Shown here one piece after another: positions 37,165 through 55,065 of a stretch of DNA of 55,065 nucleotides (its first letter is position 1; each line of letters starts with the position of its first letter). The DNA comes from Vicinamibacterales bacterium. Its GTDB lineage: Bacteria > Acidobacteriota > Vicinamibacteria > Vicinamibacterales > CAVVIG01. Under the pieces are notes generated by a model that did no database searches, was not told where the DNA came from, and saw nothing but the letters and a program-made list of their open reading frames with translations. The stretch is taken from contig JBEBGB010000001.1 in NCBI GenBank assembly GCA_040081675.1, forward strand, positions 1-55,065, written 5' to 3'. A program made the translations under genes and the position numbers.

Positions 37165-37182
37165 CGGACGTCTTCGCTATCC

Positions 37183-38777: not shown

Positions 38778-39961
38778 TGCGAATCCTGATCACCAGCCAG
38801 TCGCGCGGTGTTCAGGGAGGAATAGAAACCTATTTGAGAGCCGTCTCACCCCGGCTGGTGGCTGGCGGACACGAGCTGGCGTGGCTCTTCGGTGATTCGG
38901 TTTCGAGTGGTCCTGGCGTGGATAGCGGACACGATGAACGGTCGTGGCGAACGGCCGACGACGCTGCTGCGCGAGCGGCGATCGAGCAGTGGCGACCAGA
39001 TGTGGTGTACGCGAATGGGCTTCACGATCCGGACTGGGACTCATGGCTCGCTCGCAGATTTCCGACCTGTTACTTCGCGCATGGTTTCTTTGGCGCGTGT
39101 ATCAGCGGCCGGAAATGCAATGGGGTCGGCGCGCTGCGCGTCTGTCAGCGCAAGCTTGGCCCGGCTTGCCTCGTGCACTATCTTCCGCAACGGTGCGGCG
39201 GGCGGAGCCCCATTCGCATGGTTCGCGACTACGGCCGCGAGCGGCATAGACAACGCAACCTCCAGGAATTCGCGGCGATCATCGTGGCCAGTACGTACAT
39301 GGCGCAGGAGTATCAACGGCAGGGGATCTCGAGCGATCGCGTGCATGTGTTGCCTTTATTTCCGGTGGGCATCGCGCCTGATCCAGAGCCACCCGCGCGT
39401 CGATCGAGTTGGACGAACAATGTGCTTCTGGTGAGCCGCTTGACGGACATCAAGGGAGCCGACCTCGTCGTCGACGCCGTCTCGATTGCAGGTGGGATTC
39501 TCGGTCGAACCCTTCGACTGGTGGTTTTGGGCGATGGTCCTCGACGCGCAGCGATCGGGAACGATTCAGCACGCTCCCATGTTCCCGTAGACATGATCGG
39601 ATGGGCGGACATCGAGCAGCGAAACGCTGCAATGCGCGATGCTGATGCGCTGCTGGTCCCAAGTGTGTGGCCGGAACCCTTTGGGTTGGTTGGAATCGAG
39701 GCCGGCTGCGTGGGGGTGCCCTCGGTCGCGTTCGCGGTCGGCGGCACTGGCGACTGGCTGAAGAGCGGGGAATCTGGCGAAGCGGCGGCCGGCGGCTCAC
39801 CGAACGCGAAGGGGCTCGGCGGGGCGCTTGCGCGGTTGCTGGCCAGCCCAGACACACATCACCGCCTGCGGATCGGCGCGTGGAGGGTCTCACAACAGTT
39901 CGGGATCGATCGCCACGTTGAACAACTCACGCGCATTCTCGAGAGTGGCCGTACTCGGTGA
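38777..39961 (+). CDS. GT-B fold glycosyltransferase (family 4-like)
   Basis: 'MRILITSQSRGVQGGIETY' and 'VPSVWPEPFGLVGIEAGCVGVPSVAFAVGG'. Start overlaps the upstream stop by 1 nt (TGATG). Confidence 0.8.
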   Translation: MRILITSQSRGVQGGIETYLRAVSPRLVAGGHELAWLFGDSVSSGPGVDSGHDERSWRTADDAAARAAIEQWRPDVVYANGLHDPDWDSWLARRFPTCYFAHGFFGACISGRKCNGVGALRVCQRKLGPACLVHYLPQRCGGRSPIRMVRDYGRERHRQRNLQEFAAIIVASTYMAQEYQRQGISSDRVHVLPLFPVGIAPDPEPPARRSSWTNNVLLVSRLTDIKGADLVVDAVSIAGGILGRTLRLVVLGDGPRRAAIGNDSARSHVPVDMIGWADIEQRNAAMRDADALLVPSVWPEPFGLVGIEAGCVGVPSVAFAVGGTGDWLKSGESGEAAAGGSPNAKGLGGALARLLASPDTHHRLRIGAWRVSQQFGIDRHVEQLTRILESGRTR

Positions 39962-40058
39962 AGTCCTCAGGCCTGCGCGTCAGTAGAAGCTCTGACACGC
40001 ACGCCATCTCGCCGTCGCGCGCGCTGCCCCTGCCATTGCCTGCGGCTGAGGGCGCCGT

Positions 40059-41204
40059 GTGACCGCGTCGCCGCTGCGGGTCGCGCTGGTCGCTGACTTG
40101 CTCTCCGAACGATGGCCCAGCATGGATCTGGTAGCGGACATGTTGTTCGCGCAAATGCGCGACGCCGGATCGGACCGATCGATGCGCGTTGACCTGCTTC
40201 GCCCGACGCTGTCGAGCCGCGGAGAGCGTGTCGGCAGATACGTCAATCGGTTCTGGGACTATTCACGGTGGCTGCGGAAGCGAGCGCGTGACTTCGACGT
40301 GTTTCACGTCGTCGATCACAGCTACGCGCACCTTGTGCACGTGCTTCCGGCTGGGCGGGCGATCGTAACCTGCCATGATGTGGACGCGTTCATGCCCCTG
40401 GTTGATGCGCGAGTGATCCCCACTCGACTGCCAAAGACGCTGACTCGATTTGTGTTGTCGGGCATGGCGAAGTCGGCCTGCGTGACGTGTGATTCTCGCG
40501 CCACTTACGACGAGGCACGACGCCACCGTTTCGTCGCACCGGACCGACTTCTGGTCGTGCCGATTGGCGTCGATCCCGCGCTGTCATCCAGGCCTGAGCC
40601 AGCGGCAGACGCCGCCATCGACAGTCTCCTGGGCCCGCGTCGAGCCGACGTTGTCGAACTGCTGCATGTGGGGTCCTGCATTCCGCGCAAGCGAATCGAT
40701 GTGCTGTTGAAGGTCCTGCGAGCGGTGCGCGACGTCGATCCTCGGGTTCGATTGCTCAAGGCCGGCGGCTCGTTGACTCGCGAGCAATTGGCGCTTGCGA
40801 GGACCCTCGCAGTGGACGCGCACATCGTTCAATTGCCCTTTCTCGAATCTCGAACGCTCGGTGCACTCTACCGTCGCGCAGCGGTGACGATCGTGACTTC
40901 CGAGCGCGAAGGTTTCGGTCTGCCGGTCGTCGAGGCCGCGGCGTGCGGCACCCCCGTCGTGGCCACTGACATCCCCGTGCTCCGAGAGGTCGGCGGCAGC
41001 GCGGCCGCCTATGCGCCGCTTGACGATATAGGTCGTTGGCAAGAAGCGATCGTCAGCTATCTGGCCGCCGGCCGAGACGTGGCTCAGTCTCGGCGCATGG
41101 GCGAGGAAGCCGCCGCGCGATTCAGTTGGCGCTCCTGCGCCACAGCCATGGCGGCAATTTACGCTGACGTGGGCCGACGAGCCGCCGACGCAAGTACTCC
41201 ATGA
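40059..41204 (+). CDS. GT-B fold glycosyltransferase (family 4-like)
   Basis: 'LLHVGSCIPRKRIDVLL' and 'TSEREGFGLPVVEAAACGTPVVATDIPVLREV'. Confidence 0.85.
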   Translation: MTASPLRVALVADLLSERWPSMDLVADMLFAQMRDAGSDRSMRVDLLRPTLSSRGERVGRYVNRFWDYSRWLRKRARDFDVFHVVDHSYAHLVHVLPAGRAIVTCHDVDAFMPLVDARVIPTRLPKTLTRFVLSGMAKSACVTCDSRATYDEARRHRFVAPDRLLVVPIGVDPALSSRPEPAADAAIDSLLGPRRADVVELLHVGSCIPRKRIDVLLKVLRAVRDVDPRVRLLKAGGSLTREQLALARTLAVDAHIVQLPFLESRTLGALYRRAAVTIVTSEREGFGLPVVEAAACGTPVVATDIPVLREVGGSAAAYAPLDDIGRWQEAIVSYLAAGRDVAQSRRMGEEAAARFSWRSCATAMAAIYADVGRRAADASTP

Positions 41205-42364
41205 GTGGAGCAGGAAAACGCGGCGGGGAGTCACGCATCGTCGGGTTGGACGGCCTTCGGGCCTTGTCGATTCTGCTGGTGGTGCTCGGCCACGGATGGT
41301 CGACGATTCCGATCGCTCGAAACTTCCCGGGTCTTGGCAGATACCTGGGGAACAGTTCGCTTGGGGTGACGACGTTCTTTGTGATCAGTGGTTACTTGAT
41401 CACGTTTCTGCTCTGCAACGAACGCCGACGCTCGGGCACCATCTCGCTTCCAGCGTTCTACATGCGACGCGTGCTGCGGATTTTCCCCGCCCTGTACGTC
41501 TATCTCCTTGTCCTGGTGCTGGTACGGTCGCTCGGCCTGATTCACACCACCAACGGCGATCTCGGCATAGCCGCGACGTACCTCGCCAACTACAATCATC
41601 TGCTCCCGATCACGACAAACGCCGACTACTGGTTCGTCGGACACTTCTGGTCACTGTCGTTGGAAGAGCAGTTCTATCTGCTGTGGCCCGTTACCCTGCT
41701 CGTGGCTGGTCTGACACGGTCGCGCGCGGTCGCGCTGCTCATCGTGGTGGCATCGCCCGTGATAAGAGTGATCACCTACGCCGTCTGGCCCGAAGCCAGA
41801 GGGCAAATCGGGATGATGCTTCAGACGGCGGTCGATTCGATCATGGTGGGTTGCTATCTCGCGCTGGTCCACGAACAACCTGGCGTCACGGCGTTCTGGA
41901 ACAGGGTGTCATCCTGGGTCTGGCCGCTCGCGGCAAGTGTGTTCCTCGTCCTCGTCTCACCCTGGATGACGTTTCGTTTCGAAGGCGCTTACACCATCAC
42001 GATCGGCATGACGCTGAACAGTCTCGCTATTGCCTTGCTGATTGGCTGGGTCGTCAGAAGCCCCGAGTCAGGATTCAGCCGCGCCCTGTCGACGCCCGCC
42101 TTGCGCTACATCGGGACCCGGTCCTACGGCTTGTATCTGTGGCAGCAGCTCTTTCTCGCACCGAAGGTTGCGATGTGGGTCTTTCCGTTTCCCCTGAACG
42201 TGGTCGCGATTCTGATGGCTGCCGAGTGTTCTTACCGGTGCGTCGAGCGGCCGTTTCTAGGGATGCGGGATCGCTTCCGCGGCGCGACACGCGAGCCAGC
42301 TCGTCACGAGTCATCTCTCGTGTCCACTCACCTTCGCGCCACGCAGCCTGCGATAGACCAGTGA
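41201..42364 (+). CDS. Acyltransferase family 3 membrane protein
   Basis: 'GLDGLRALSILLVVLGHG' N-terminal His motif, about 10 TM segments, and 'LGTRSYGLYLWQ' near the C-terminus. ATGA overlap with the upstream gene. Confidence 0.85.
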   Translation: MSGAGKRGGESRIVGLDGLRALSILLVVLGHGWSTIPIARNFPGLGRYLGNSSLGVTTFFVISGYLITFLLCNERRRSGTISLPAFYMRRVLRIFPALYVYLLVLVLVRSLGLIHTTNGDLGIAATYLANYNHLLPITTNADYWFVGHFWSLSLEEQFYLLWPVTLLVAGLTRSRAVALLIVVASPVIRVITYAVWPEARGQIGMMLQTAVDSIMVGCYLALVHEQPGVTAFWNRVSSWVWPLAASVFLVLVSPWMTFRFEGAYTITIGMTLNSLAIALLIGWVVRSPESGFSRALSTPALRYIGTRSYGLYLWQQLFLAPKVAMWVFPFPLNVVAILMAAECSYRCVERPFLGMRDRFRGATREPARHESSLVSTHLRATQPAIDQ

Positions 42365-43533
42365 CACGCACGAACACGTTGCGCGTGCTACACGTAGGCA
42401 AGTTCTATCCGCCTTCGCGCGGCGGCATGGAGAAGGTGCTACAGGTGCTGGCCGAGGCCGAGCGGTCCGTCGTGGACAACCATGTGCTCGTTGCGAACGA
42501 GGGCCTGTCCACCGTGCGCGAGACGGTCAACGGAGTCCCTGTCACACGCGTCGGCTCGGTGACACGCGTCGGCGCTGTCGCGGTCTGCCCGGCGTTTCCG
42601 TTCTGGATGCGTTCCCTGGACGCGGATGTCATGGTCGTCCATGAGCCGAACCCTGTGGCACTGGTTGCTCATGCGCTCGTGCGCCCCACATCCAAACTCG
42701 TGTTCTGGGTGCATGCAGAGGTCGTGAGGCCTGCGTGGCGGTACAAGGTGTTCTATCGGCCGTTTCTTCGTCGCATGCTCGCGCGCGCCGACCGCATCGT
42801 CGTCGCCTCGCCGCAGATGGTCGAGTGTGCCGCGGAACTCCAGCCGTATCGAGACAAGTGCACCGTGATTCCGTACGGACTCGATGCCGACCAGCACACG
42901 CCGACAGCTGCTATCGCTGCTCGCGTCGCCGCGCTGAAGGCGAAGTCCGATGACCCGATCGTGCTCTTCGTCGGACGGCTCGTGCCCTACAAGGGAGTTG
43001 ACGTTCTCCTGCGTGCCGCTCGGAACGTCAGAGCCCGCGTTGTGATTGTGGGCGACGGGCCGATGCGCCCGGCTCTGGAGCAACAGGCCCGAGAGCTGGA
43101 AATCGCAGACCGGGTCCAATTCACCGGCAATGCAGGTGCGGAGGAGCTGTCGGCTCTCTACAACGCGTGCGATCTCCTCGTCTTGCCGTCTGTCACGAGG
43201 GCTGAAGCCTTCGGCATGGTGCAGCTAGAGGCCATGTCCTGTCGCAAGCCGGTCATCTGCACTGATCTGCCTTCGGGAGTTCCGTGGGTGAATCAGCACG
43301 GCATCACAGGACTGGTGGTGCCTCCGCAAGATCCGGCAGCACTCGCGTCGGCAATGTCCGCGCTCCTCTCCGACCCCGCTACGCGCTCCAGAATGGGCGA
43401 ACTGGGACGCGCGCGCGTCAACAGTCAGTTCACCGTCAGCCGTCTGGTCGAGCAGACGACGCTTCTCTACCGTTCGCTCGTCCAACCGGTGCCAGCGACA
43501 GCTGCCTTGGCAACCTGGCGAGTGGAACGATGA
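42361..43533 (+). CDS. GT-B fold glycosyltransferase (family 4-like)
   Basis: Trimmed to GTG 42361 (GTGA overlap). 'LRVLHVGKFYPPSRGGMEKV', 'VLFVGRLVPYKGVDVLL', 'EAFGMVQLEAMSCRKPVICTDL'. Confidence 0.85.
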   Translation: MTRTNTLRVLHVGKFYPPSRGGMEKVLQVLAEAERSVVDNHVLVANEGLSTVRETVNGVPVTRVGSVTRVGAVAVCPAFPFWMRSLDADVMVVHEPNPVALVAHALVRPTSKLVFWVHAEVVRPAWRYKVFYRPFLRRMLARADRIVVASPQMVECAAELQPYRDKCTVIPYGLDADQHTPTAAIAARVAALKAKSDDPIVLFVGRLVPYKGVDVLLRAARNVRARVVIVGDGPMRPALEQQARELEIADRVQFTGNAGAEELSALYNACDLLVLPSVTRAEAFGMVQLEAMSCRKPVICTDLPSGVPWVNQHGITGLVVPPQDPAALASAMSALLSDPATRSRMGELGRARVNSQFTVSRLVEQTTLLYRSLVQPVPATAALATWRVER

Positions 43534-44195
43534 AGGCGACGGCTGTCGGGACGCCCCCGCTGCGCGCCGCACTGCCGCCAGTGCCCGTGCCGCTTGGTAA
43601 ACGCGCGCTTGACGTCTGTCTCTCGGGCATCGGCCTGCTGGGTTCGGCGCCTATCTGGCTGGCCTTGGCCGTGGCAATCAAGCGCGAAGACGGTGGCCCG
43701 ATTTTCTACACGCAGGACCGGGTAGGAGAGGGCGGCCGGGTGTTCACCGTGTTCAAGTTTCGCTCGATGATCCCCAACGCGGAGGCTGTCGTCGGTGCTG
43801 TGCAGGCCACTGAGGAAGACCCTCGCGTGACACGAGTGGGCAGACTCATGCGAGCGACTGCGATGGACGAATTGCCGCAACTATGGAACATCTTCCGCGG
43901 CGACATGAGCTTTGTCGGTCCGCGCGCGCTTCGGCCGGGTGAAATTGAAGCGACCGGCGAGGCGCTCGTGGCCCTGGAGGATGTTCCTGGATACGCCGAC
44001 CGCTGTCGCGTTCGCCCGGGTTTGACGGGCGTCGCGCAAGTCTACGCGCCGCGAGACGTTGGGCGCCGTAACAAGTTTCGCTACGACCGGGTCTATACAC
44101 TGCGTCAGAGTTTCTGGCTCGATGTGCGACTTATCCTGCTCTCGTTCTGGATCACGTTCCGTGGCCGGTGGGAGCACCGCGGCGAAAAGATATAG
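43530..44195 (+). CDS. Small single-domain polyprenyl-phosphate sugar phosphotransferase (bacterial sugar transferase)
   Basis: Trimmed to ATG 43530 (ATGA overlap). 'PIFYTQDRVGEGGRVFTVFKFRSM' and 'MDELPQLWNIFRGDMSFVGPRA'. Confidence 0.9.
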   Translation: MKATAVGTPPLRAALPPVPVPLGKRALDVCLSGIGLLGSAPIWLALAVAIKREDGGPIFYTQDRVGEGGRVFTVFKFRSMIPNAEAVVGAVQATEEDPRVTRVGRLMRATAMDELPQLWNIFRGDMSFVGPRALRPGEIEATGEALVALEDVPGYADRCRVRPGLTGVAQVYAPRDVGRRNKFRYDRVYTLRQSFWLDVRLILLSFWITFRGRWEHRGEKI

Positions 44196-44254
44196 CGCGC
44201 GCGCGCTCTCTCTCCGTCCCTTCCTTCCTTCCTTTCTTCCTTCCTTTCTTTCTC
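44195..44254. repeat. (GC)6 alternating tract fused to a CT/CCTT-type pyrimidine-rich tract whose last 38 nt (44217-44254) are uninterrupted
   Basis: GCGCGCGCGCGC (44195-44206) is followed by CTCTCTCTCCGTCCCTTCCTTCCTTCCTTTCTTCCTTCCTTTCTTTCTC. The top strand is pure pyrimidine over 44217-44254. The tract begins at the last base of the sugar-transferase stop codon. Confidence 0.9.
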
Positions 44255-44396
44255 GCCGCCTACGGGCGCTCACTCCTCCTCCTGATAGCCCGTCTGAGCT
44301 GTTACGCCTCACGATCGCTGTCCCGGCCGGTGGGTCTGCTCCGCACGTGCGGGCCAGCATCATCAGCGGGCATCGTGAGGTACTCTTAGACCGACG

Positions 44397-45590
44397 ATGC
44401 ATGACGTCCTGGTTGTAGGCGGGGGCCCCGGAGGTCTGTACACCGCCACGCTATTAGCGCGTGAAGGGCTTGACGTGGCAGTCCTCGAGGAGCACGCGAC
44501 ACCGGGTGAACCCGTCCACTGCACCGGGGTACTTGCTGTAGAAGCATTCAGCGAGTTCGGGCTCTCGCGCCAGCCAATCCTGAACGCACTCGCCACGGCA
44601 CGATTCATTTCACCATCAGGCTTGTCGATCGCCCACACGACGCCGCGAACCGAGGCGCTCGTGATCGATCGCGCACTGTTCGACCAGGACCTTCATCGAC
44701 AGGCACGCGAGGCCGGTGCGACCGTCGTTCTCGGCACGCGCGTGAACGCGGTCGACGTCGACAGTACTGGCGTGACGCTGCGAACCGCAGACCGTCATTT
44801 CAGGGCCAGGGCCTGCGTGCTGGCCTGCGGCGCCAACTACTCGTTGCATCGGCAACTCGGTCTCGGTCTCCCCGCGGCCTATTTGCGTTCCGCCCAACTC
44901 GAGATGCGAGCCGCTCGAACTGCCGATGTCGAGGTGTACTTCGGCAACGACGTCGCGCCTCAGGGTTTCGCGTGGGTCGTTCCCGTTGAACGAGGCGCCG
45001 AGCGCTACGCGCGCGTCGGCCTGATGTGCGAAGAAGACCCGTCGGGACACTTTCGACGCTTCGTGGCGCGCAATCGAGAGCCGCTCGGATTGACGGTGCC
45101 GTGCGGGCCAGACGGCGATGTCGTCCCTCGCCAGAAGATCCTGCCGCTGGCGCCTATCGCACACACGTACGCCGACCGCGTCATTGCCGTCGGCGACGCC
45201 GCAGGACTCGTAAAGGCCACGACAGGCGGCGGCATCTACTACAGCCTGGTCTCCGCGTCGATCGGCGCCGACGTTCTCACCGCGGCCCTGAGAACGAACA
45301 CGCTCGAGAGCGCCAGCCTCGCCGCCTACCAGCAGCGCTGGCAGCAGCGACTCGGGCCCGAACTCGACGCGCAGTACTCACTACGCGAGCTCGCCGAGCG
45401 GATGGACGATGACGAGATCGATGCGCTATTCGATCTCGCGCAAACCAACGGTGTGATGCCCATCGTGCGTCGCACCGCGCGCTTCAATCAGCATCGCGAC
45501 CTGATCCTGTCGTTGCTGAAGCATCCTCCCGCGCGCCGGCTCCTCTTCAGGGAGCTCGTGACCCGTGCCACCGCCTTCCCGCTCCGCTAA
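44397..45590 (+). CDS. FAD-dependent oxidoreductase of the geranylgeranyl-reductase family
   Basis: 'HDVLVVGGGPGGLYTATLLAREGLDVAVLEE' and 'RVIAVGDAAGLVKATTGGGIYYS'. 397 aa. Confidence 0.8.
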   Translation: MHDVLVVGGGPGGLYTATLLAREGLDVAVLEEHATPGEPVHCTGVLAVEAFSEFGLSRQPILNALATARFISPSGLSIAHTTPRTEALVIDRALFDQDLHRQAREAGATVVLGTRVNAVDVDSTGVTLRTADRHFRARACVLACGANYSLHRQLGLGLPAAYLRSAQLEMRAARTADVEVYFGNDVAPQGFAWVVPVERGAERYARVGLMCEEDPSGHFRRFVARNREPLGLTVPCGPDGDVVPRQKILPLAPIAHTYADRVIAVGDAAGLVKATTGGGIYYSLVSASIGADVLTAALRTNTLESASLAAYQQRWQQRLGPELDAQYSLRELAERMDDDEIDALFDLAQTNGVMPIVRRTARFNQHRDLILSLLKHPPARRLLFRELVTRATAFPLR

Positions 45591-47034
45591 CGAGCGGCCC
45601 GGTCGTCTGTCGGGCCAGGCGAGCCTCGTGCTCGCGGGTACCCTCGTGGCGCTGGCGTGGGGAGCGTTTGCGTTCGGTGCAGTCTATCGGTGGGCTTACG
45701 TGCCGCTCGCGATCTTGTGCGCGTGTGTCGGTCTCTTCGGTCTCGCCACCGGGAGGCGCTCCGTTTGGGACGCTCGGTGGGTACTCTTCCCGATAGTCGG
45801 CATCGGCCTGATCGGTGCCATCCAGCTCCTACCGCTTCCCGGCAGCTGGCTTGCGCTGGTGAGTCCGGGAACGGTGGCCTTTCTTCGTCGCTACGACCTT
45901 GCGTACGCATTCGCTCTGGATCCGAACACGAACACTCCGGGCGCTGTGACGCACGCGATCTCCGTTTCTCCGCTGTTGACACTGCGCGCCCTCGCTCTCC
46001 TCGCTGCACCACTCCTGCTGTTTGTTGGACTGTATCGCACGCTGTCGCGAACCGCGGCGAGGCGTCTTGCCGCCGGTGTGGTGTCTATCGGCTGCGCGCT
46101 CGCCCTGATTGGTGTCGGCCAGAAGGCGCTGCTGGGCGACCACGCGTACGGTGGCATGCGCATCTACGGCTTCTGGCGTCCCGAGTCGTTGCTTACAACG
46201 CCGTTTGGTCCATTCATCAACAGGAATCACTTCGCAGGCTGGATGCTCATGGGAACGCCACTCGCTCTTGGGCTGGCGGCAGGTGGGTTCGTGCGGGCGC
46301 TGCCCACGCTGCGGGGCAGAGGCGCGCGCGCCTGGCTCGTGTGGTGCTCCGATCCCGACGGTGGACTCACGTTGCTCTACTTCATCGCGGCGATTCTGAT
46401 GACGCTGTCGTTGTTCATGACCGGCTCTCGCTCGGGCATCGGCTGCTTCGTTGTCGTCGCCGCCGGGATGCTCTTCGCCGCGCGCCGACTCGCAAGGGCA
46501 CGAACGATGATTGGGCTGAGCATTGTTGCGACGCTGACGCTCGGGCTCGTGCTGCAGTGGGCCGGCCCGGACGCGGCGCTCGAACGCTTCGTTCGGGAGT
46601 CACAGTCGATGTCGCTTCGGCTGGACATCTGGCGAGCCTCGCTGGAGGCGTTCCGGCAATTTCCAGTGCTCGGCAGTGGCCTGGATAGCTTCGGTACCAC
46701 GATGCTGGTGTTCCAACCAGGGGCAAGGGATTTACGCTACGTCGAAGCTCACAACGAGTACTTGCAGCTGCTCGTCGAGGGCGGACTGGTCACATTTGGC
46801 CTGATGATCCTGGCGATCGCCGCGGTGGTACGCGGCGCCAGACGCCGCTTCCGCGCCGGCGACGATGGACTCGACGGACATTGGGTGCGTGTGGGAGCAG
46901 CCATCGGACTGGTCGCCATCGGGCTGCAGTCACTGGTGGAGTTCAGCCTGCAGATGCCAGGCAACGCGGCTTTGTTCACCGTGTTGCTGGCGATGGTGCT
47001 CTACATCCCCACGCCAATCCGAAACAAACCGTAG
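45565..47034 (+). CDS. O-antigen ligase / Wzy_C-family polytopic membrane protein
   Basis: About 11 TM segments, 'TGSRSGIG' and 'AHNEYLQLLVEGGLVTFGL' (Wzy_C signature). The GTG start overlaps the reductase gene by 26 nt, so the start is uncertain. Confidence 0.8.
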   Translation: MPPPSRSANERPGRLSGQASLVLAGTLVALAWGAFAFGAVYRWAYVPLAILCACVGLFGLATGRRSVWDARWVLFPIVGIGLIGAIQLLPLPGSWLALVSPGTVAFLRRYDLAYAFALDPNTNTPGAVTHAISVSPLLTLRALALLAAPLLLFVGLYRTLSRTAARRLAAGVVSIGCALALIGVGQKALLGDHAYGGMRIYGFWRPESLLTTPFGPFINRNHFAGWMLMGTPLALGLAAGGFVRALPTLRGRGARAWLVWCSDPDGGLTLLYFIAAILMTLSLFMTGSRSGIGCFVVVAAGMLFAARRLARARTMIGLSIVATLTLGLVLQWAGPDAALERFVRESQSMSLRLDIWRASLEAFRQFPVLGSGLDSFGTTMLVFQPGARDLRYVEAHNEYLQLLVEGGLVTFGLMILAIAAVVRGARRRFRAGDDGLDGHWVRVGAAIGLVAIGLQSLVEFSLQMPGNAALFTVLLAMVLYIPTPIRNKP

Positions 47035-47100: not shown

Positions 47101-48234
47101 TCAGTGCGTGTCAGCAGCGCTGCGCCAGAGCCACCGACGAGCGCCACGAAGAGCCCGCAGCACGTACATCGCCGCCAATGGCATGCGGCTCGACGGCGCA
47201 TAGACACTGCGCATGTAGTCGCGGCTCGGAAACAGATGCTCGCGCATCAACTGCGACCGCTCGGACCAGGTTGTGAGCACCCGCAGATCGTCGAGAACGA
47301 CCCTGGCCTGTGCGCGAGGGCGAAGATACTCGGCCGTACGCTCAGGTGCGTGGCTGACCAGTCGAGCGTCGCTGAGCACCCACGCGGGAACGTGCGTGTG
47401 GAGCCACCGGGCTGCCTGCGAAAGACCTTCTCGACACACCGCGGCGACACCACGCTCGGCGATGATCGTCAGAAAACCGTCCCACTCCCGAGCCTCGAGC
47501 CGCGAGGCGATGAGGTGGATGTCGTACGTCCACTTCAACTTGTGAGGTTCGTCGTTGTGGTGAGCCACTTGATGCATGCAGGCGATGAGCAGCGCGTGCA
47601 CATTCGATGGTCCACGGGCACGCGGCCCCAGCGATGGGATCGGCTGCGAGGCCGCGAGCAGCTCATCGAAGCGCAGGACGTGCGCGAAGACCTGCGGGCT
47701 CGCAAGCCGCCAGTGCAGGTCCACGAGGTGAACATCAGCGCCGTGCCGCGTCAGGGCATGGAGTTGCTGGGTCGCCGTCAGCTCGCCGGACGGCTTTGCA
47801 TCGGGGACATAGCCGAGGCCGCCCAGCACGCGGGTTGCGCTATCCCGCTGTGTGCGCCCAACGAGCAGGTCCGAATCGATCCGCGCGCGAAGGTCAGGTC
47901 TCGAGTAATGGCTGTATGCCAGATGACTGCCCTTGATGACCAGCACCTGAACGCCGTCGGCGTCCAGTTCGTTCAGCAACCGGCGCAGTTCAATCTCCGC
48001 AGCCAGGTCGGATGCCGCGAGTTTCTGCGACGCTTCTCGAAACACCCTTCGAAGCGTGTCGGCCAACTGGTCGCCTGCGGCGAGACGATCGGCCACGAGC
48101 GCCACGATATCGTGCTCTCGGGCGGCGCTCAGTAAGAGCTCCGCGTCAGACGTGGTCGATGAGCCCGCATCGCACTCCTCGCCTCTCAGCATCGAAGCCA
48201 GGCACTCATCCAGGCCGATAGATCCCTTCTGCAT
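47101..48234 (-). CDS. Nucleotidyltransferase (PF14907-like, lasso-cluster-associated)
   Basis: Trimmed to ATG 48234, 10 nt after the ABC stop. Pol-beta-type NTase motif 'VIKGSHLAYSHYSRPDLRARIDSDLLV', and 'KWTYDIHLI' further on. Confidence 0.7.
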   Translation of the reverse strand: MQKGSIGLDECLASMLRGEECDAGSSTTSDAELLLSAAREHDIVALVADRLAAGDQLADTLRRVFREASQKLAASDLAAEIELRRLLNELDADGVQVLVIKGSHLAYSHYSRPDLRARIDSDLLVGRTQRDSATRVLGGLGYVPDAKPSGELTATQQLHALTRHGADVHLVDLHWRLASPQVFAHVLRFDELLAASQPIPSLGPRARGPSNVHALLIACMHQVAHHNDEPHKLKWTYDIHLIASRLEAREWDGFLTIIAERGVAAVCREGLSQAARWLHTHVPAWVLSDARLVSHAPERTAEYLRPRAQARVVLDDLRVLTTWSERSQLMREHLFPSRDYMRSVYAPSSRMPLAAMYVLRALRGARRWLWRSAADTH

Positions 48235-48244
48235 GGTCAGCGGC

Positions 48245-50062
48245 TCACGCAGCACCGATCTCGACGCCCTGGGCGTCAGAGAGCGCGCGGAAGCGACTGG
48301 TCGGGTTGCCGAGCAGCGACGACCATGTGCCACACTCCCGCACGCGGCCGCCTTCGATCACGTAGATTTGATCGGCGTTTCTGATGGTGGACAACCGATG
48401 CGTGATGACGACGATCGTGATCTGCTCGTGGAGACCGTCGATCGCCGCCTGAATTCGCTGCTCGTTCTCGGAGTCGAGCGCACTGGTCGCTTCATCCAGA
48501 ATCAGAACCTGGGGCTGTCGTAACAGGGCTCTCGCAAGTGAGAGGCGCTGGCGTTCCCCGCCGGAAACCAGCACACCGCGATCGCCGATCACCGTGTCGA
48601 GCCCAGCCGGAAGGGCACGGACAAAGTCGGCAGCTGCGGACCGCTCCAGGGACTGCCAGATGGCTTCGTCGGTGGCCGAGGGACACGCCCACAACAGGTT
48701 TGCGCGAATGGTGTCGTGAAACAGCAACGTCTCCTGCGCGACGTATCCGATCCTCGCGCGCCACGACTGCAGCCGCTCCGGCGTGAGTGGCATCTCGTCG
48801 ACGAGCACGGCGCCGTGTGCAGGTGTGACGAGGCCCATCATCAGGTCGGCGATCGTGCTCTTGCCTGCGCCAGATGGTCCCACGATCGCGGTGGTCGTAT
48901 GTACGGGCACATGCAGCGTGACATCCTCCAGCGCCGGCCGCCCTGGCGTCTCCAGGTAGCTGAATGTCACATGGCGGCAGTCGAGCGACGCTTCGAACGT
49001 GACGCGGTCGTGCCGGGTTGGCTCGGGCTCCGCCGCAGCGAGGCACTGCGCCTCGGCTTCGACGACGCTCTCGAAGGCGGGCAACTCCACCAGCAACACC
49101 TGCGCCCTCTCATAGAGCGAAGTCACACGTGGCACAAGCCGCGCGAACAGGAAGATGAGCAGCAGCAGCGAGGCTGCGGATATCTGCATGACCGCTTGCG
49201 CGACGTACACGATCGCGGCGAGCAGCACCGCCGAGCCAATCGTCAGCCACTGACGGGCGCGGACGGACGCCGACATCGCACTGAGGCTTGCCTGGCCCAC
49301 CTCCGACGATAGCAGGCCGAAACGTTCCGCAAGACGCGACCCCGCGCCGTATCCCTTGGCCATCTTCATGCCCGCCAGATGGTCGAACGTCGCGCTGTGC
49401 AGACGCGTGGACGCGTCGGTGTACCGTTCGCCTGCAGCGTGTGCCCTCGCGAGTTGCCCTCGCATGGCGAGCGCCAGCACGGCTCCGCAGGTCACCACGA
49501 ACGTGGTCATCACCGGCGAAACCCGGAATGCGAGCACCACGTACACGAGCGCAATCACGCCCGTCACGAACAGGTCCATCAGGTAGTACGCAGCCGACGC
49601 GACACGATCGATCCGTTCGGTCAGCAACTGACCGAAGGTCGATGTTCGAGTTCGCGAGAAGTACACCCACGTGGTGCCCGCGATCGCGCGATGCAGTCGC
49701 CTTCGCAACGTGTCGACGATCTGCTCGCGGAGCCGCGTCTGCACGGTCGTTTGCTGCCGTTGAAGCAGGCTCTGGACGGTAACGATCGTGACGTACAGCG
49801 CCAGAACGGCGGGCAGCGTCGGAACCAGGCCGACCAGGGCGAATCCGCTCCTGAACACGCCCATGACGCGACCGAGAGCGCCCTGCCCCGCGTCGACTCC
49901 GACCAGTTGCAGAAGCGGGATGAGCACCAGAAGCCCGATTCCTTCCGCCAGACCAACGGCGAAGGTCAGGAGCATGGTGAGTGCCGCGCGGCGCGGCGCG
50001 ACCGCGATGATCGCCGTCACGAACTGCCTCAACGCGCGGAGAGTTGGAGAGAGGGTGCTCAC
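48245..50062 (-). CDS. ABC exporter, fused permease + ATPase (McjD-type lasso peptide export/immunity)
   Basis: 605 aa with a 6-TM domain, then Walker A 'GPSGAGKST', signature 'VSGGERQRLSLARA' and Walker B 'LILDEATSALD'. Starts 6 nt after the B2 stop. Confidence 0.9.
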   Translation of the reverse strand: MSTLSPTLRALRQFVTAIIAVAPRRAALTMLLTFAVGLAEGIGLLVLIPLLQLVGVDAGQGALGRVMGVFRSGFALVGLVPTLPAVLALYVTIVTVQSLLQRQQTTVQTRLREQIVDTLRRRLHRAIAGTTWVYFSRTRTSTFGQLLTERIDRVASAAYYLMDLFVTGVIALVYVVLAFRVSPVMTTFVVTCGAVLALAMRGQLARAHAAGERYTDASTRLHSATFDHLAGMKMAKGYGAGSRLAERFGLLSSEVGQASLSAMSASVRARQWLTIGSAVLLAAIVYVAQAVMQISAASLLLLIFLFARLVPRVTSLYERAQVLLVELPAFESVVEAEAQCLAAAEPEPTRHDRVTFEASLDCRHVTFSYLETPGRPALEDVTLHVPVHTTTAIVGPSGAGKSTIADLMMGLVTPAHGAVLVDEMPLTPERLQSWRARIGYVAQETLLFHDTIRANLLWACPSATDEAIWQSLERSAAADFVRALPAGLDTVIGDRGVLVSGGERQRLSLARALLRQPQVLILDEATSALDSENEQRIQAAIDGLHEQITIVVITHRLSTIRNADQIYVIEGGRVRECGTWSSLLGNPTSRFRALSDAQGVEIGAA

Positions 50063-50068
50063 ACCCCG

Positions 50069-50581
50069 CTAGCTCGCTGGAATGCTGTGCGGGGCGCTCG
50101 GCGGCGGCTCGGCGTCCAGGTGTCCGTCAGGACCAAAGGCGAACGCAGGGGTGTAGGACGCAATCGCGGATTGCGGTTCGCCAACCAACTGCCCGTCGAC
50201 CAGCACCCAGGCGTGACCGATCACACCGGCGGGGTCACGACCGACGCCGATGACCAACGTCGGATGCGCGCCCGCCGCGCACAGGTAGCGATACGCGATG
50301 AGGCTGCGTTCGAGACAATTGGCGCCCCGGTTCCACCGCGTGAGACGGGCGCCCCACTGCGCGAACGTGATGATGCGGCGCTCGCGATCGGCGTCTCGAG
50401 TCGCGCGCCGCTGCGGCTGATGCATGACCGCGGCGAGTGACTTCACCGAGACAACGCGTTTCAGCGCTGGAAGGACAAGAGCCCACGCCAATGCCTTGGT
50501 CACCAGGATCGCGTCGGAGACGGTGCGCACTTCCTGACCAAGACGACGAAGCACGTAACCACGCGGTGCGGCTGGAGACAT
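50069..50581 (-). CDS. Lasso peptide leader peptidase B2 (transglutaminase-fold Cys protease)
   Basis: Trimmed to ATG 50581, which overlaps the kinase stop by 1 nt (TGATG). 'GANCLERSLIAYRYL' (catalytic Cys) and 'GVIGHAWVLVDG' (catalytic His). Confidence 0.85.
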   Translation of the reverse strand: MSPAAPRGYVLRRLGQEVRTVSDAILVTKALAWALVLPALKRVVSVKSLAAVMHQPQRRATRDADRERRIITFAQWGARLTRWNRGANCLERSLIAYRYLCAAGAHPTLVIGVGRDPAGVIGHAWVLVDGQLVGEPQSAIASYTPAFAFGPDGHLDAEPPPSAPHSIPAS

Positions 50582-51510
50582 CACTGCACCGTGGGGGACG
50601 GCGTGGTCGGGCCGCGTCGGCGCGCCTGTCCGGTGAGACCGCCGTTCACGCCGCAATCGGCCGCGTGTGCTTCGAGTTGATCGAGGTTGGATGCCAGCGC
50701 GGGGAAGGTTCTGGGAAAGGTGAATCGAAAGGAAGGCACCGCGACGGCCAGCGACAGGTAATCGCGCATGAGCCGTTGGTTGTGTTCCGGCTCGTTGATG
50801 CTGAACGCATGTGCTTGCGCCAGCAAGAGCGGAAGGCTCTCGGCAGCTTTGAGTCGTGTGAACGACACCGGCGTCGACGGGTCAGGCGACGGGTCCAGGG
50901 CGTAGATCACCCTCAGGCGGAGACAGGTCGATGGCCAGTCGAACGGGATATCCGTTGCCTCCGACTTGCCAAAGTACTCTGCTGTCGCTTGACGCAGTCG
51001 TGCTTCGCTTCTGAGGGGGTACAGGTTGATGGGCGCGTCAGTGTCGTTGGGGTGACACGAAAAGGCCAGGGCGTCGTCGGAAACCGGCGTCCATCCAGGA
51101 CGCTGGGCCAGAGCGTACGCGGTTGTGGACTTGCTCGCACCGCTCGGACCAGTGAACGCGATCACGTCGCCAGTTGGCGACGCAACCGCGCTGGCATGCA
51201 GAACCTGTCGGTGCCAGATTGGATAAATGGCGGGGAGCCAGCTTCTCCACACGAGCTGTTCGAACTGGGATCGATCAACTCCGGTGCACGGGCACAGTAC
51301 CAGTTCCGGGCGGTCGGCGGTAAAGGTCGCGCCGCCGAATTCCGGCTGCCAAATCCAGTACTGTTGCCCGACCAGAAAGCAGTGCGTGGGTGCCTCACCG
51401 TCCACGGGCCAGGTGGCCAGATGCTGGCCAGCGGTACTGACACGAACGAATACGTCGTCCGTCTGGCTCACCACCTGCCAACGCAGGACCGGGACGACCC
51501 ACGATGACAC
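50581..51510 (-). CDS. HPr-kinase-homologous peptide kinase (lasso tailoring)
   Basis: P-loop 'FTGPSGASKSTTAYALA' (compare HprK GxSGxGKS). Start set to GTG 51510, just downstream of the precursor stop. The tracked 373-aa ORF extends over the precursor gene in another frame. Start uncertain (+/- 60 nt). Confidence 0.7.
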   Translation of the reverse strand: MSSWVVPVLRWQVVSQTDDVFVRVSTAGQHLATWPVDGEAPTHCFLVGQQYWIWQPEFGGATFTADRPELVLCPCTGVDRSQFEQLVWRSWLPAIYPIWHRQVLHASAVASPTGDVIAFTGPSGASKSTTAYALAQRPGWTPVSDDALAFSCHPNDTDAPINLYPLRSEARLRQATAEYFGKSEATDIPFDWPSTCLRLRVIYALDPSPDPSTPVSFTRLKAAESLPLLLAQAHAFSINEPEHNQRLMRDYLSLAVAVPSFRFTFPRTFPALASNLDQLEAHAADCGVNGGLTGQARRRGPTTPSPTVQ

Positions 51511-51521
51511 GGTCGTAACGC

Positions 51522-51683
51522 CTAGTCGCCCATCATCTGTTCGAGGGTGACGCTGCCGTTGTCCATGTTGATCATCGTCTTCGAGCCTGCCCGGACGAAG
51601 TCGCGCAGGTTGCCGAGTTCTTGAACTGACGGCGAATGCCAGACCGGCTTGAGGCGGGCTTCGTTGCTCTTGGGTGCTGCCAT
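51522..51683 (-). CDS. Lasso peptide precursor (53 aa): MAAPKSNEARLKPVWHSPSVQELGNLRDFVRAGSKTMINMDNGSVTLEQMMGD
   Basis: Not in the ORF track (below its size cut-off). ATG 51683 is preceded by GGGAG (51691-51695) with a 7-nt spacer, and TAG ends at 51522. The leader has W-x2-P-x-V-x3-G spacing like the lasso RRE-recognition motif. The C-terminal part has a small residue followed by Asp 8-10 residues later. It sits between the cyclase and kinase genes. Confidence 0.7.
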   Translation of the reverse strand: MAAPKSNEARLKPVWHSPSVQELGNLRDFVRAGSKTMINMDNGSVTLEQMMGD

Positions 51684-53701: not shown

Positions 53702-54006
53702 GGCGAGGGGCCTTCGTGGGCCAGTTCAATCAGCCCCTTTGTTCTGAAGTCCTCGATGAGTCTATGCACTTCGCGCGACACGAGGTCGGTCGGTTCGAGA
53801 TACTCGGCTGCCAGGCGCTCGACGATCTCGTTCACGGTAAGTCCGTCAGCGATCAGCAGTGCGACGCGCGCGGCGGTTTCGTTGAGCGAGTAGGCCGCTT
53901 CAGCGGTCAGCTTCAGAGCGAGAGCCTCGTTGCCCACGTGCCGAATGACGACATCTGGCGCGAACCGAACCGCGGACACCGCATCGGGGAATGGCTGATC
54001 CCCCAT
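53698..54006 (-). CDS. PqqD-family RiPP recognition element (lasso B1)
   Basis: Trimmed to ATG 54006 (TGATG overlap with the methyltransferase stop). 102 aa. 'VVIRHVGNEALALKLTAEAAYSLNETAARVALLIADGLTVNEIVERLAAEY...VHRLIEDFRTKGLI' is the PqqD pattern. Confidence 0.85.
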   Translation of the reverse strand: MGDQPFPDAVSAVRFAPDVVIRHVGNEALALKLTAEAAYSLNETAARVALLIADGLTVNEIVERLAAEYLEPTDLVSREVHRLIEDFRTKGLIELAHEGPSP

Positions 54007-55065
54007 CAGGCAAAGCGCTTCACGATCGCGCGCACGAATCGTGAGGCATCCTCGTGGGTCTGGTACCTGGTCGGCCATTGCTCGAGAACGCCGGCCGCGA
54101 TCTCTCTGACCGGCGTCGTGCCGGCACACCGCGCAAGTACGAACTGCGCGGCCTCGCCTTCGACGTTCAAGGCGGGCAGGTAATCCATCGCCGCCTTCTT
54201 CAGAGTCGACGCCGTCATGGGGTCGGCGAGCATTGTCGAGTGGCGCTGCGAGCCCCCGTTCCACGACACGCGCCAGGTCCAATCACCGTAGGGCGCGCGG
54301 TCGAGGCGAAGTGCCACGCGATCGCCAACCGACAGGGCAATGGGCGGGTCGAGCGGGAGAAAGCCAGCCGACCAGTGCATGGGTTCCGCGTCTGGCGCCG
54401 TCGACACCCAGCGTTCGCCCAGCCGCATCGTGAACCAACCAGCGAAACCGTGACAGAGCTCCGCGGTGCGAACGGTGAATTCGGTCTCGGCGTGAATCGG
54501 TCCGTAACTGTCCGACAGAAAGTCGAGGCTGTGCACCTCGCGGGGTTCGGCGAGATAGACCACGTTCGTGCGATCCCACCGAAAGTGCACGGTGTTGGCC
54601 GCGTATGCGCGAGCGGGCTCGAGCGTCACGCCGTGTTGAGGCTCGCTCCAACTGGAGATCTCGCGGGCGTGCAGACGCGGAGCGCTCACCGGGGCGATGA
54701 CGATCGTGGCTCGGTCGGGAATCATCGCTCCGCCCGGTTTCATGAGCGTGTCGCGCGCGCGGAACAGAACGGGCAGCAGATCCTCGCTCATGAGGAGATT
54801 GCCGGTGAGTACGGACACGATGACGTCCACCGGTTCCGGAATCTGAACGTCGTCGAGACCACCGTGCAGGCACTGCACGACGTCCTGCAAATGGTTGGCG
54901 CGTGCGGCTTCGGACGCAACCGACACCACCTCTTCGGGTTCAACGAGGTAGACGCGCTTCGCTCCAAGTCTGGCCGCCATCAGGCCATGGATGCCGAGAC
55001 CTGCGCCGAGGTCGAGCACGACGCTCGACGGAGTGATCACCCGCTCGAGCGCGTCGGCATACGCA
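54006..55065 (-). CDS. PRMT-fold (protein arginine methyltransferase-like) SAM methyltransferase with C-terminal PqqD/RRE-like extension; 5' end outside window
   Basis: The reading frame is open to the window edge ('AYADALERVITPSSVVLDLGAGLGIHGLMAARLGAKRVYLVE' = SAM motif I/post-I). 'SVLTGNLLMSEDLL' resembles the double-E loop, and 'HGFAGWFTMRL...PMHWSAGFLPL' resembles the PRMT beta-barrel/THW loop. The last ~55-75 aa resemble the helical half of PqqD. Confidence 0.7.
   Translation of the reverse strand, partial: AYADALERVITPSSVVLDLGAGLGIHGLMAARLGAKRVYLVEPEEVVSVASEAARANHLQDVVQCLHGGLDDVQIPEPVDVIVSVLTGNLLMSEDLLPVLFRARDTLMKPGGAMIPDRATIVIAPVSAPRLHAREISSWSEPQHGVTLEPARAYAANTVHFRWDRTNVVYLAEPREVHSLDFLSDSYGPIHAETEFTVRTAELCHGFAGWFTMRLGERWVSTAPDAEPMHWSAGFLPLDPPIALSVGDRVALRLDRAPYGDWTWRVSWNGGSQRHSTMLADPMTASTLKKAAMDYLPALNVEGEAAQFVLARCAGTTPVREIAAGVLEQWPTRYQTHEDASRFVRAIVKRFA

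Follow-up and report, generated by a model that had tools for sequence, protein, structure and literature searches.

A putative methyltransferase of the protein arginine methyltransferase superfamily, with a remotely PqqD-like C-terminal tail, in a kinase-type lasso peptide gene cluster of a Vicinamibacterales bacterium

Introduction

The closest studied system to the gene cluster described here is the bsf lasso peptide cluster of Bradymonas sediminis (BsfA/B1/B2/C/D/K/N; Duan et al. 2023, PMC10368454). Our cluster lies at the end of a 55,065-nucleotide stretch of DNA from a Vicinamibacterales bacterium of the Acidobacteriota (contig JBEBGB010000001.1 of assembly GCA_040081675.1, positions 1 to 55,065; hereafter, the window), and the gene at its edge, which encodes a putative S-adenosylmethionine (SAM)-dependent methyltransferase (MT), is the subject of this work. 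Both clusters encode split B1 and B2 proteins, an HPr-kinase-like protein K, a PF14907 nucleotidyltransferase and an ATP-binding cassette (ABC) exporter. Both precursors have a core of ~20-21 residues with a ring from residue 1 to Asp8 (predicted, in the window), a C-terminal Asp, Ser or Thr at core position 3 and a residue other than Thr at leader position -2. BsfK, which depends on B1, phosphorylates Ser3 of the core and is inactive on the leaderless core (PMC10368454). Lacking from the bsf cluster is any methyltransferase, and it encodes a single PqqD protein, whereas the window has MT in addition, its close relatives add a second PqqD, and Lys at core position 2 is invariant among them.

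Two methylations of lasso peptides appear in reviews to June 2026, C-terminal methyl ester formation and protein isoaspartyl methyltransferase (PIMT)-type Asp methylation leading to aspartimide, and neither involves an enzyme of the protein arginine methyltransferase (PRMT) type (PMC8498205, PMC9266682, PMC13352647). StspM and LasF are C-terminal carboxyl O-methyltransferases of the lassomycin type (PMC8498205, PMC9266682), and LihM and TceM are PIMT homologues that O-methylate Asp on the way to aspartimide (PMC9266682). StspM, which has been modelled on mitomycin 7-O-methyltransferase (PMC9266682), acts on the linear precursor ahead of B1, B2 and C (PMC8498205, PMC9266682). The MT of the window resembles these proteins in being a (predicted) SAM-dependent tailoring enzyme encoded in a lasso cluster. 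It differs from them in enzyme family, and no domain resembling a recognition element (RRE) of peptides that are made by ribosomes and then modified after translation (RiPPs) is described for them in the cited literature.

Two other protein groups serve as comparisons for MT, the PRMTs and the RREs. In PRMTs, two invariant glutamates of the double-E loop (E144 and E153 in rat PRMT1) hold the guanidinium group. RRE domains are said to occur both as discrete proteins and fused to RiPP enzymes, as reportedly set out by Burkhart in 2015 and in RRE-Finder. In the known complexes of RREs with leader peptides, the leader lies between alpha3 and beta3 and is paired with beta3 (PMC12710340).

We predict, with a probability of roughly 0.6, that MT is a tailoring methyltransferase of a kinase-type, split-B lasso cluster, that its C-terminal tail is a docking module, and that its methyl acceptor is not arginine.

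Results

The minus-strand frame of MT is open from 54006 to 55064 (352 codons, then TGA at 54008-54006), and the 5' end of the gene lies past the window edge. Homologues are 361-373 amino acids (aa) long. Because they reach 372 aa, about 20 N-terminal residues probably lie beyond the window, for a full length of roughly 372.

Profile matches and a structure model place MT in the PRMT superfamily: it combines a Rossmann SAM domain with a PRMT beta-barrel, and helices occupy the place of the dimerisation arm. The Pfam model PRMT_C (PF22528) matches residues 117-256 with 37.8 bits against a gathering threshold of 27, and PrmA and generic Rossmann models cover residues 5-115. Overall, the Pfam and NCBIfam matches are to PRMT_C, PRMT5_C, PrmA and generic Methyltransf_25/11 models; no match at E<=0.01 to a PCMT/PIMT or O-methyltransferase (Methyltransf_2-like) family was found in these two databases. 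NCBIfam (June 2026) has no model specific to MT, the best matches being PrmA-type models far under their cut-offs. When a profile built from 40 homologues was compared with the PDB, at least 60 PRMT chains (PRMT6, PRMT2, PRMT3, CARM1, PRMT8, PRMT1, PRMT7 and PRMT9) were matched at E 8e-53 to 1e-23 over profile positions 2-279 of 373. The AlphaFold2 model has a mean predicted local distance difference test score (pLDDT) of 87.5 and a predicted template modelling score of 0.73 (the AlphaFold models used 39-40 sequences as input, without templates). Its best 50 Foldseek matches in the PDB are all PRMTs (E ~1e-25, target-normalised template modelling score (TM) 0.65-0.82, identity 21-27%), with TM of 0.75-0.82 to PRMT3, PRMT8 and PRMT1 structures. 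Thus, the PRMT fold, as opposed to a generic class I methyltransferase fold, was correctly proposed in the initial annotation and is also detectable by sequence. Homology to PRMTs stops near residue 258, and strands 262-268 and 271-276 finish the barrel.

Eukaryotic type I PRMTs (PRMT6, PRMT2, PRMT3, CARM1 and PRMT1; PDB 4hc4, 1f3l and 1or8) have the same two-domain architecture and the helices at the arm position. They also share with MT motif I, the post-I acid, the second Glu of the double-E loop, the H-W pair and an LSTSP-type strand, at ~24-27% sequence identity. The longer MT homologues start with M-S-Y-x-S-V-x-G-H-R-S-M-A-L-D-R-V-R-N-x-A-Y, and the Y...H..M..D..R...Y pattern in this segment is aligned by HMMER to the N-terminal segment of PRMT6 chains, where PRMTs carry the helix motif that closes over SAM. 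The 372-aa homologues have only one aromatic residue of the YFxxY motif there; the window itself is cut before this segment.

The SAM-binding motifs named in the initial annotation are present. Across the 40 homologues, V16, D18, G20, G22 and G24 of motif I are invariant and the post-I acid E42 (in Y-L-V-E) is at least 90% conserved, and both motifs align with their counterparts in PRMT6. Assignment of the substrate loops is based on the HMMER alignment to PDB PRMT chains. A loop equivalent to the double-E loop was identified, with only the second of its two glutamates: S84-V-L-T-G-N-L-L-M-S-E94-D95 in the window aligns with S-E-W-M-G-Y-G-L-L-H-E-S of PRMT6, and the family consensus 'ivsvltGnlLlteDLL' pairs with IVSEWMGYGLLHESML in solved PRMT6 chains. 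Where PRMTs have the first Glu, the window has Val85, and all 40 homologues have Val or Ala. T87, G88, N89, E94 and D95 are invariant in the same set, and the Trp and Tyr of the PRMT loop are replaced in the family by Leu, Phe or Met and by Asn, respectively. The loop equivalent to THW reads P-M-H230-W231. Its H and W, also pointed out initially, are invariant in the subfamily of the window, the Thr position is variable (Met in the window), and the strand W-x-S-T-x-P ahead of the loop is conserved. MT therefore has the motif I, barrel and THW-type loop expected of a PRMT and lacks one defining catalytic feature of arginine methyltransferases, the complete pair of glutamates. Compared with the eukaryotic enzymes, it has Val or Ala for the first Glu, Leu/Phe and Asn for the flanking Trp and Tyr, and an extra C-terminal domain of 76 residues. 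It is also bacterial and operon-linked to a RiPP pathway, and it probably acts on a small ribosomal peptide that has no conserved Arg.

Three MT subfamilies can be told apart by their catalytic loops. Subfamily 1, which includes the window, has S[VA]xTGN...E[DN] plus H-W, with Val or Ala at the first Glu position throughout. Subfamily 2 has ADQIGxFGxE, with R-R where PRMTs have H-W, and subfamily 3 has [SE]D[LM]RG. Subfamilies 2 and 3 are remote and keep the C-terminal tail (L062-L083, e.g., L068:7944-9104 and L083:3944-5101). Six of the ten tabulated precursor candidates of subfamily 2 end in -Cys-Leu.

The genomic context of MT is that of lasso biosynthesis. In three context look-ups the gene order is PqqD, MT, PqqD, C, a small open reading frame (ORF), K, B2 and ABC exporter, with the PF14907 gene next in the two loci that extend that far. 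A scan at one genome per species yielded at least 160 relatives, and 80 of these loci were analysed (83 with the three context loci). They come from at least eight phyla (Acidobacteriota/Vicinamibacterales, Cyanobacteria, Gamma-/Betaproteobacteria, Rokubacteria, Chloroflexota, Planctomycetota, Thermoleophilia and others), and one cyanobacterial locus is in the complete genome of Calothrix sp. PCC 7716. The family as a whole comprises at least 548 sequence clusters. Co-occurrence was counted in the 50 loci in which MT is flanked on each side by at least 4 kb, using hidden Markov models (HMMs) built from the loci themselves: K was identified in 46, C in 44, PqqD in 41 and PF14907 in 31. In 22 loci, MT lies on the same strand as K and is its direct neighbour or overlaps it, in the order K-MT in cyanobacteria and MT-K in Rokubacteria and others. 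This is strong evidence that MT belongs to the lasso cluster and is co-inherited with kinase and cyclase across phyla. The initial annotation had allowed for orthologues unlinked to lasso clusters; what is found is linkage in nearly all of the loci counted. These synteny statistics rule out a housekeeping PrmA or a chance neighbour.

A second stand-alone PqqD protein (~95 aa) is encoded directly upstream of MT in L001:9706-9993, L002:9661-9948, L003:230-526 and L007:7631-7906. This arrangement is a feature of the acidobacterial clade nearest the window, in which the corresponding position would be beyond 55065, and most other clades have one PqqD. The upstream gene suggests that, in this clade, full RRE function is supplied in trans. 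Two MT copies per locus were also observed, in tandem in L075:4133-6463 and split by the kinase in L076 (3626-4780 and 7812-9089).

The MT stop codon overlaps the start of B1, as initially described: TGA (54008-54006) and ATG (54006-54004) have one base in common (cTGATGg), and the identical 1-nt overlap occurs in the metagenomic locus L003, which is 90% identical. MT is translationally coupled to B1.

The tail of about 75 aa noted initially comprises residues 277-352 and has no counterpart in PRMTs. It is conserved in all three subfamilies and is therefore an old, defining feature of the family. In the full-length model it has short helices at 277-280 and 285-291, a loop at pLDDT 52-74, and helices at 301-311, 319-329 and 337-351 at pLDDT >90. 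The last 55 residues form the three-helix bundle, whose helices span nt 54012-54164, and the flexible linker carries a conserved D-Y295-x-P297-x-L-N-x-E-G segment. A model of the tail alone has the same helices (pLDDT 91).

A relationship to PqqD is suggested by several comparisons. The Pfam PqqD model (PF05402) matches 25 of 39 family tails at E<=1 (best 3.6e-6), and any other family matches at most five. In the window's tail the match spans positions 17-61 of the 67 in the model, its helical half, and the tails of the remote subfamilies give E values of 0.014-0.24. With 111 tails and 73 PqqD proteins taken from the same loci, HHalign gave P = 0.0067 over 49 columns, colinear over alpha1-alpha3, compared with P = 0.12 and 14 columns for a reversed-sequence control. 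It pairs FVLARCAGTTPVREIAAGVLEQWPTRYQTHEDASRFVRAIVKRFA of the tail with RVALLIADGLTVNEIVERLAAEYLEPTDLVSREVHRLIEDFRTKGLIEL of PqqD, which is the alignment first proposed; with small alignments of the tail and B1, P was 0.055. The claim that the tail is colinear with the helical half of B1 thus holds at the level of profiles, at which the similarity is weak. A pairwise BLASTP comparison of the tail with B1 of the same cluster returned no alignment, and the colinearity seen by eye is therefore undetectable pairwise. Features shared with RRE/PqqD domains (PF05402; PMC12710340) include the order and length of the three helices, L-N-x-x-G before helix 1 and a hydrophobic alpha3. The tail is also located, as in RRE fusions to RiPP enzymes, within a predicted RiPP tailoring enzyme.

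Weighing against this assignment is the finding that no beta-strand is predicted from residue 277 to the C-terminus in either the full-length or the tail-only AlphaFold model; residues 277-300 are modelled as helix or coil at pLDDT 52-74. The models thus lack the three-stranded sheet that, with alpha3, forms the peptide-binding cleft of an RRE. For lack of a predicted sheet, the tail alone would be unable to bind a leader in the known RRE mode. PqqD is the sole family matched by the window's own tail, and that match (E 0.0074, 17 bits) falls short of the gathering threshold of 23.4. In a comparison of the tail profile with PDB sequences, PqqD (5sxy, E 1.6) and a dynein light chain (E 0.36) were the only matches. 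Foldseek of the tail-only model against the PDB found nothing at E<=0.001, and PqqD (3g2b) ranked 38 (E 8.9, TM 0.52). On sequence, the similarity is marginal, in the twilight zone. Nor did a tail HMM retrieve any of the ~70 PqqD proteins among 9,666 ORFs of the 83 loci, and a B1 HMM matched MT tails only at E 0.19 or worse. We dismissed as spurious a match of the B1 HMM in which motif I 'VVLDLGAG' of MT is aligned with the 'VLLDL' strand of PqqD.

Most likely, the tail is derived from the helical half of an RRE and is remotely related to alpha1-alpha3 of PqqD/RRE proteins, and is not a complete RRE. The winged-helix RRE that the initial annotation expected is not what the model predicts, which is three helices with no beta-sheet wing, and an autonomous private RRE is not shown.

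The Pro/Leu/Gly spacing of Y-x-P-x-L-x-x-x-G in the tail (window 54117-54182, residues 295-303) equals that of W-x-x-P-x-V-x-x-x-G in the leader (51612-51641, precursor residues 15-24). Mimicry of the leader motif Y-x-x-P-x-L-x-x-x-G was considered; the segment is probably explained more simply as the 'L-N-x-x-G' junction between beta3 and alpha1 of PqqD.

The precursor encoded in the window has a leader with W15-HS-P18-S-V20 and ELGNLRDFVR, followed by the predicted core S34-KTMINM-D41-NGSVTLEQMMGD. The predicted ring is S34-D41 (8-membered), with G33-D41 (9-membered) as an alternative. These features follow the lasso leader/core pattern (Y/WxxPxL; a small first residue and Asp/Glu at 7-9). 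Leader position -2 is Ala (core from S34) or Arg (core from G33), not Thr, and non-Thr residues at -2 are documented for kinase-type lasso clusters (PMC10368454). The arginines (R10, R27 and R31) all lie upstream of the core, which contains no Arg and has K35 as its sole basic residue, exactly as read initially.

The three context loci and eight further genome loci encode homologous peptides at this position, eleven in all (that of L003 is 96% identical). In these peptides the leader W-x-x-P-x-[LV]-x-E-L-G-N-L-R-D-F-V-R-x-G is followed by a spacer of 0-3 residues and then by the core. Most of these cores start [GS]-K-[ST]-x4-D; the exceptions are L048, with x3, and L016, which begins with N. 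In the window's clade the distance from the WxxPxV motif to the predicted core is 2-5 residues longer than in the canonical -17/-14/-12 register, and ELGNLRDFVR is invariant. Were B2 to cleave after R31, which is the canonical distance, ring closure on D41 within 7-9 residues would be impossible.

For distant loci, precursor candidates were called by motif search, and the predicted cores of ~60 loci were compared. Candidates from other phyla have the canonical Y(-17)xxP(-14)xL(-12)xxxG(-8)xxxxxT(-2)x leader. A methyl acceptor common to the predicted cores of these ~60 loci was not found. The cores have no Lys or Arg in common, Lys2 is confined to the window's clade (in which it is invariant), and Ser/Thr3, Cys, Met and Asn/Gln are each missing from some. 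For example, the candidate core of L083 is SGAGSAGDAGTLGAMMMMCL, that of L059 (subfamily 1, with catalytic loops like those of the window) begins GSFGFGGDAGGTMTVGMGM and contains no K, R, N or Q, and that of L014, GMVLGNYMDMMFAMVMM, has no Ser/Thr near the N-terminus. Thus, no single side chain would serve the whole family.

Several predicted cores in the canonical register start with Thr, Asn or Gln rather than Gly, Ala, Ser or Cys. Many have two Cys in the tail, and some end in long (Gly-Met)n repeats. Examples among these loci are L021:11038-11220, L066:2248-2584, L073:7741-7899, L015:1647-1766, L053:10955-11200 and L059:11025-11264.

The gene order in the window is MT-B1-C-A-K-B2-D-N, on the minus strand (Table 1). 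B1, B2 and C are present together according to Pfam and NCBIfam, with only B2 above an NCBIfam lasso cut-off. The start of C overlaps the stop of B1 by 4 nt, and the GTG start of K is 11 nt past the stop of the precursor gene. K would function as a peptide kinase, by analogy with BsfK and the paeninodin kinases (PMC10368454, PMC8498205). The longest ORF of N starts at 48333 and overlaps the 3' end of D by 89 nt; an internal ATG near 48234 is the probable true start. A polysaccharide-type locus adjoins the lasso cluster at 36046-47034 on the plus strand and encodes four GT4 glycosyltransferases, an Acyl_transf_3 protein, an FAD oxidoreductase and a Wzy_C O-antigen-ligase-like protein. The clusters of L001 and L002, too, have genes for Wzy_C, GT87 or Bac_transf beside them.

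Table 1. Positions in the window of the methyltransferase gene, its segments and the other genes of the lasso cluster
Feature	Position	Strand	Basis
MT, PRMT-family SAM-dependent methyltransferase gene (predicted)	54006..55065	minus	ORF; Pfam PRMT_C, PrmA, Methyltransf_25; PDB profile; AlphaFold/Foldseek
SAM motif I, V16-LDLGAGLG-24	54993..55019	minus	Invariant columns; post-I acid E42 ~55 nt downstream
Double-E loop equivalent, S84-VLTGNLLMS-E94-D95	54780..54815	minus	Alignment to PRMT6 chains and family alignments
H230-W231 of THW-like loop (PMHW)	54372..54377	minus	Subfamily-invariant; aligned to THW of PRMT6
PRMT beta-barrel with predicted dimerisation-arm helices, residues 117-256	54297..54716	minus	Pfam PRMT_C; DSSP of model
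C-terminal tail, residues 277-352 (last 76)	54009..54236	minus	Models; Pfam PqqD; HHalign; family conservation
B1, stand-alone PqqD/RRE protein, 102 aa	53698..54006	minus	Pfam PqqD E 9.8e-12; NCBIfam lasso PqqD families below cut-offs
C, lasso cyclase (asparagine-synthetase homologue), 628 aa	51815..53701	minus	Pfam Asn_synthase, GATase_7; partial NCBIfam lasso cyclase match, below cut-off
A, precursor peptide, 53 aa	51522..51683	minus	Direct reading; AGGGAG 8 nt upstream of ATG; eleven homologous peptides
K, HPr-kinase-like P-loop protein (putative peptide kinase), 309 aa	50581..51510	minus	GPSGASKST P-loop; GTG start placed by comparison with the L003 gene
B2, leader peptidase (transglutaminase-core)	50069..50584	minus	Pfam Transglut_core3 E 7e-18; NCBIfam lasso_biosyn_B2 57.8 bits against cut-off 33
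D, ABC exporter	48245..50062	minus	Pfam/NCBIfam matches
N, PF14907 nucleotidyltransferase	47101..48234	minus	Pfam NTP_transf_5 E 1.9e-39; start uncertain

Discussion

We propose that MT would carry out SAM-dependent methylation of the linear, leader-bearing precursor, within an assembly organised by leader and RRE that would also serve the kinase. By analogy with BsfK, K would phosphorylate the Ser/Thr at core position 3 with the help of B1, and T36 is the probable phosphosite here. The wingless RRE-like tail may dock MT on the leader-RRE complex without being a self-sufficient RRE. Docking could occur through pairing of the conserved D-Y-x-P-x-L-N segment with the leader strand, which would complete the groove, or through binding of the tail to a discrete PqqD protein. 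In the window's clade, full RRE function would come from the second PqqD in trans. Counting against this scheme, methylation of the precursor is deduced from gene linkage alone, and the enzyme could act instead on the mature lasso or on a protein partner.

As expected initially, the methyl acceptor is not obvious. Arginine is very unlikely on sequence grounds, because the first Glu of the double-E loop is lost and no Arg is conserved in the cores. Enzymes with the PRMT fold, like those related to PrmA, methylate nitrogen. For this reason, and because E94-D95 would suit a cation and the Lys is invariant in the clade, the epsilon-amine of K35 (core Lys2) is our first, tentative choice for the window. 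The catalytic loops of subfamily 1 are invariant also where the cores lack Lys, which argues against Lys35 as a general acceptor. Somewhat less probable is T36 or its phosphate, favoured by the 92% co-occurrence with the kinase, the frequent adjacency or overlap of K and MT, and the R-R in place of H-W in subfamily 2. The C-terminal carboxylate ranks third and is less likely again. It is the sole functional group common to all cores, and the methyl ester of the lassomycin type provides a precedent; the differing enzyme family and the acidic pocket speak against it. E94 and D95 argue against an anionic acceptor generally, be it phosphate or carboxylate. The remainder of our expectation goes to some other group.

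The rival explanations differ in what they make of the tail and of the remodelled active site. If the tail were an autonomous private RRE that binds the leader itself, MT would be recruited independently of B1, as the initial annotation suggested. The PqqD-like signal in the tail is compatible with this, as is the single discrete PqqD of most clades. The D-Y-x-P-x-L-N-x-x-G segment sits at the position of the beta3-alpha1 junction of PqqD ('Y-F-x-L-N-x-x-G') and could become a strand only when the leader strand pairs with it, and the linker pLDDT of 52-74 fits such disorder-to-order binding. We nevertheless regard the private RRE as unlikely, and the suggestion is not supported in the form given. 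The tail corresponds to the helical half only, with no beta1-beta3 sheet in the models and no significant structural match to RRE structures. The HMMs of tail and B1 fail to connect the tails with the PqqD proteins of their loci, the window's clade encodes a second, complete PqqD right upstream of MT, and the related kinase BsfK relies on B1 in trans (PMC10368454). A further possibility is that the tail is a DNA-binding winged helix and MT a regulator, or that MT is a scaffold without catalytic activity. A Glu that is key to catalysis in PRMTs is indeed lost, helix-turn-helix proteins of the forkhead, MarR, PadR and Fur types appear in the Foldseek list of the tail-only model (each at E >2), and weak Pfam HTH_47 matches occur in 5 of 39 tails. 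These helix-turn-helix matches are not significant, no wing is present, and PqqD is the dominant Pfam signal in the tails. The SAM motifs, the second Glu, D95, H230 and W231 are invariant among sequences that share as little as 49% identity with the window protein, which is unexpected for a dead enzyme, and the gene is inside a biosynthetic operon and translationally coupled to B1. We give a scaffold or a regulator very little credence.

The methyl group could also be transferred to the phosphate of phospho-Ser/Thr (T36), yielding a methyl phosphodiester, or MT could otherwise act beside the kinase; such O-methylation would be a new reaction for the PRMT fold. K is the commonest partner gene (identified in all but four of the 50 loci), often adjacent to or overlapping MT in both orders, and the cores have no side-chain acceptor in common. 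Remodelling of the substrate loop has put V for E, L/F for W and N for Y, T87 and N89 being invariant, and the R-R that subfamily 2 has instead of H-W would suit an anionic group. To our knowledge, there is no PRMT-fold O-methyltransferase, and this counts against the idea. So do E94-D95 and the H-W loop of subfamily 1, which would repel a phosphate, and predicted cores such as that of L014 that lack Ser/Thr near the N-terminus. A precedent for the modification of a lasso phosphate is pseudomycoidin, to which the PF14907 enzyme PsmN adds a hexose (PMC8498205). On balance, we consider phosphate methylation improbable, slightly more so than the private RRE. A broader proposal, in which a PRMT-fold enzyme that has lost its first Glu is recruited via a wingless RRE remnant and methylates a kinase-installed phosphate (giving a methyl-phospho-Ser/Thr lasso) or another non-guanidino group on the leader-bound precursor, is speculative and, in our view, unlikely.

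Conclusions

In the searchable full-text literature on lasso peptides and RiPPs we found no description of this MT family, and, as the initial annotation supposed, no characterised PRMT-fold enzyme of lasso biosynthesis; most subscription journals fall outside this coverage, and a prior mention there is possible. We read MT as a RiPP tailoring methyltransferase of a fold not previously tied to RiPPs, with a truncated RRE-like module and a non-arginine acceptor. Methylation of phosphate or of another non-guanidino group, if it occurs, would be a lasso modification of a new kind and would add a reaction class to the PRMT fold. If MT is recruited via a wingless RRE, half an RRE would work by completing its site with the leader strand or a partner PqqD. 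If active, MT would define an uncharacterised and widespread lasso modification, provide a bacterial, small-substrate model for change of specificity in the PRMT active site, and serve as a natural test of a minimal wingless RRE-like module.

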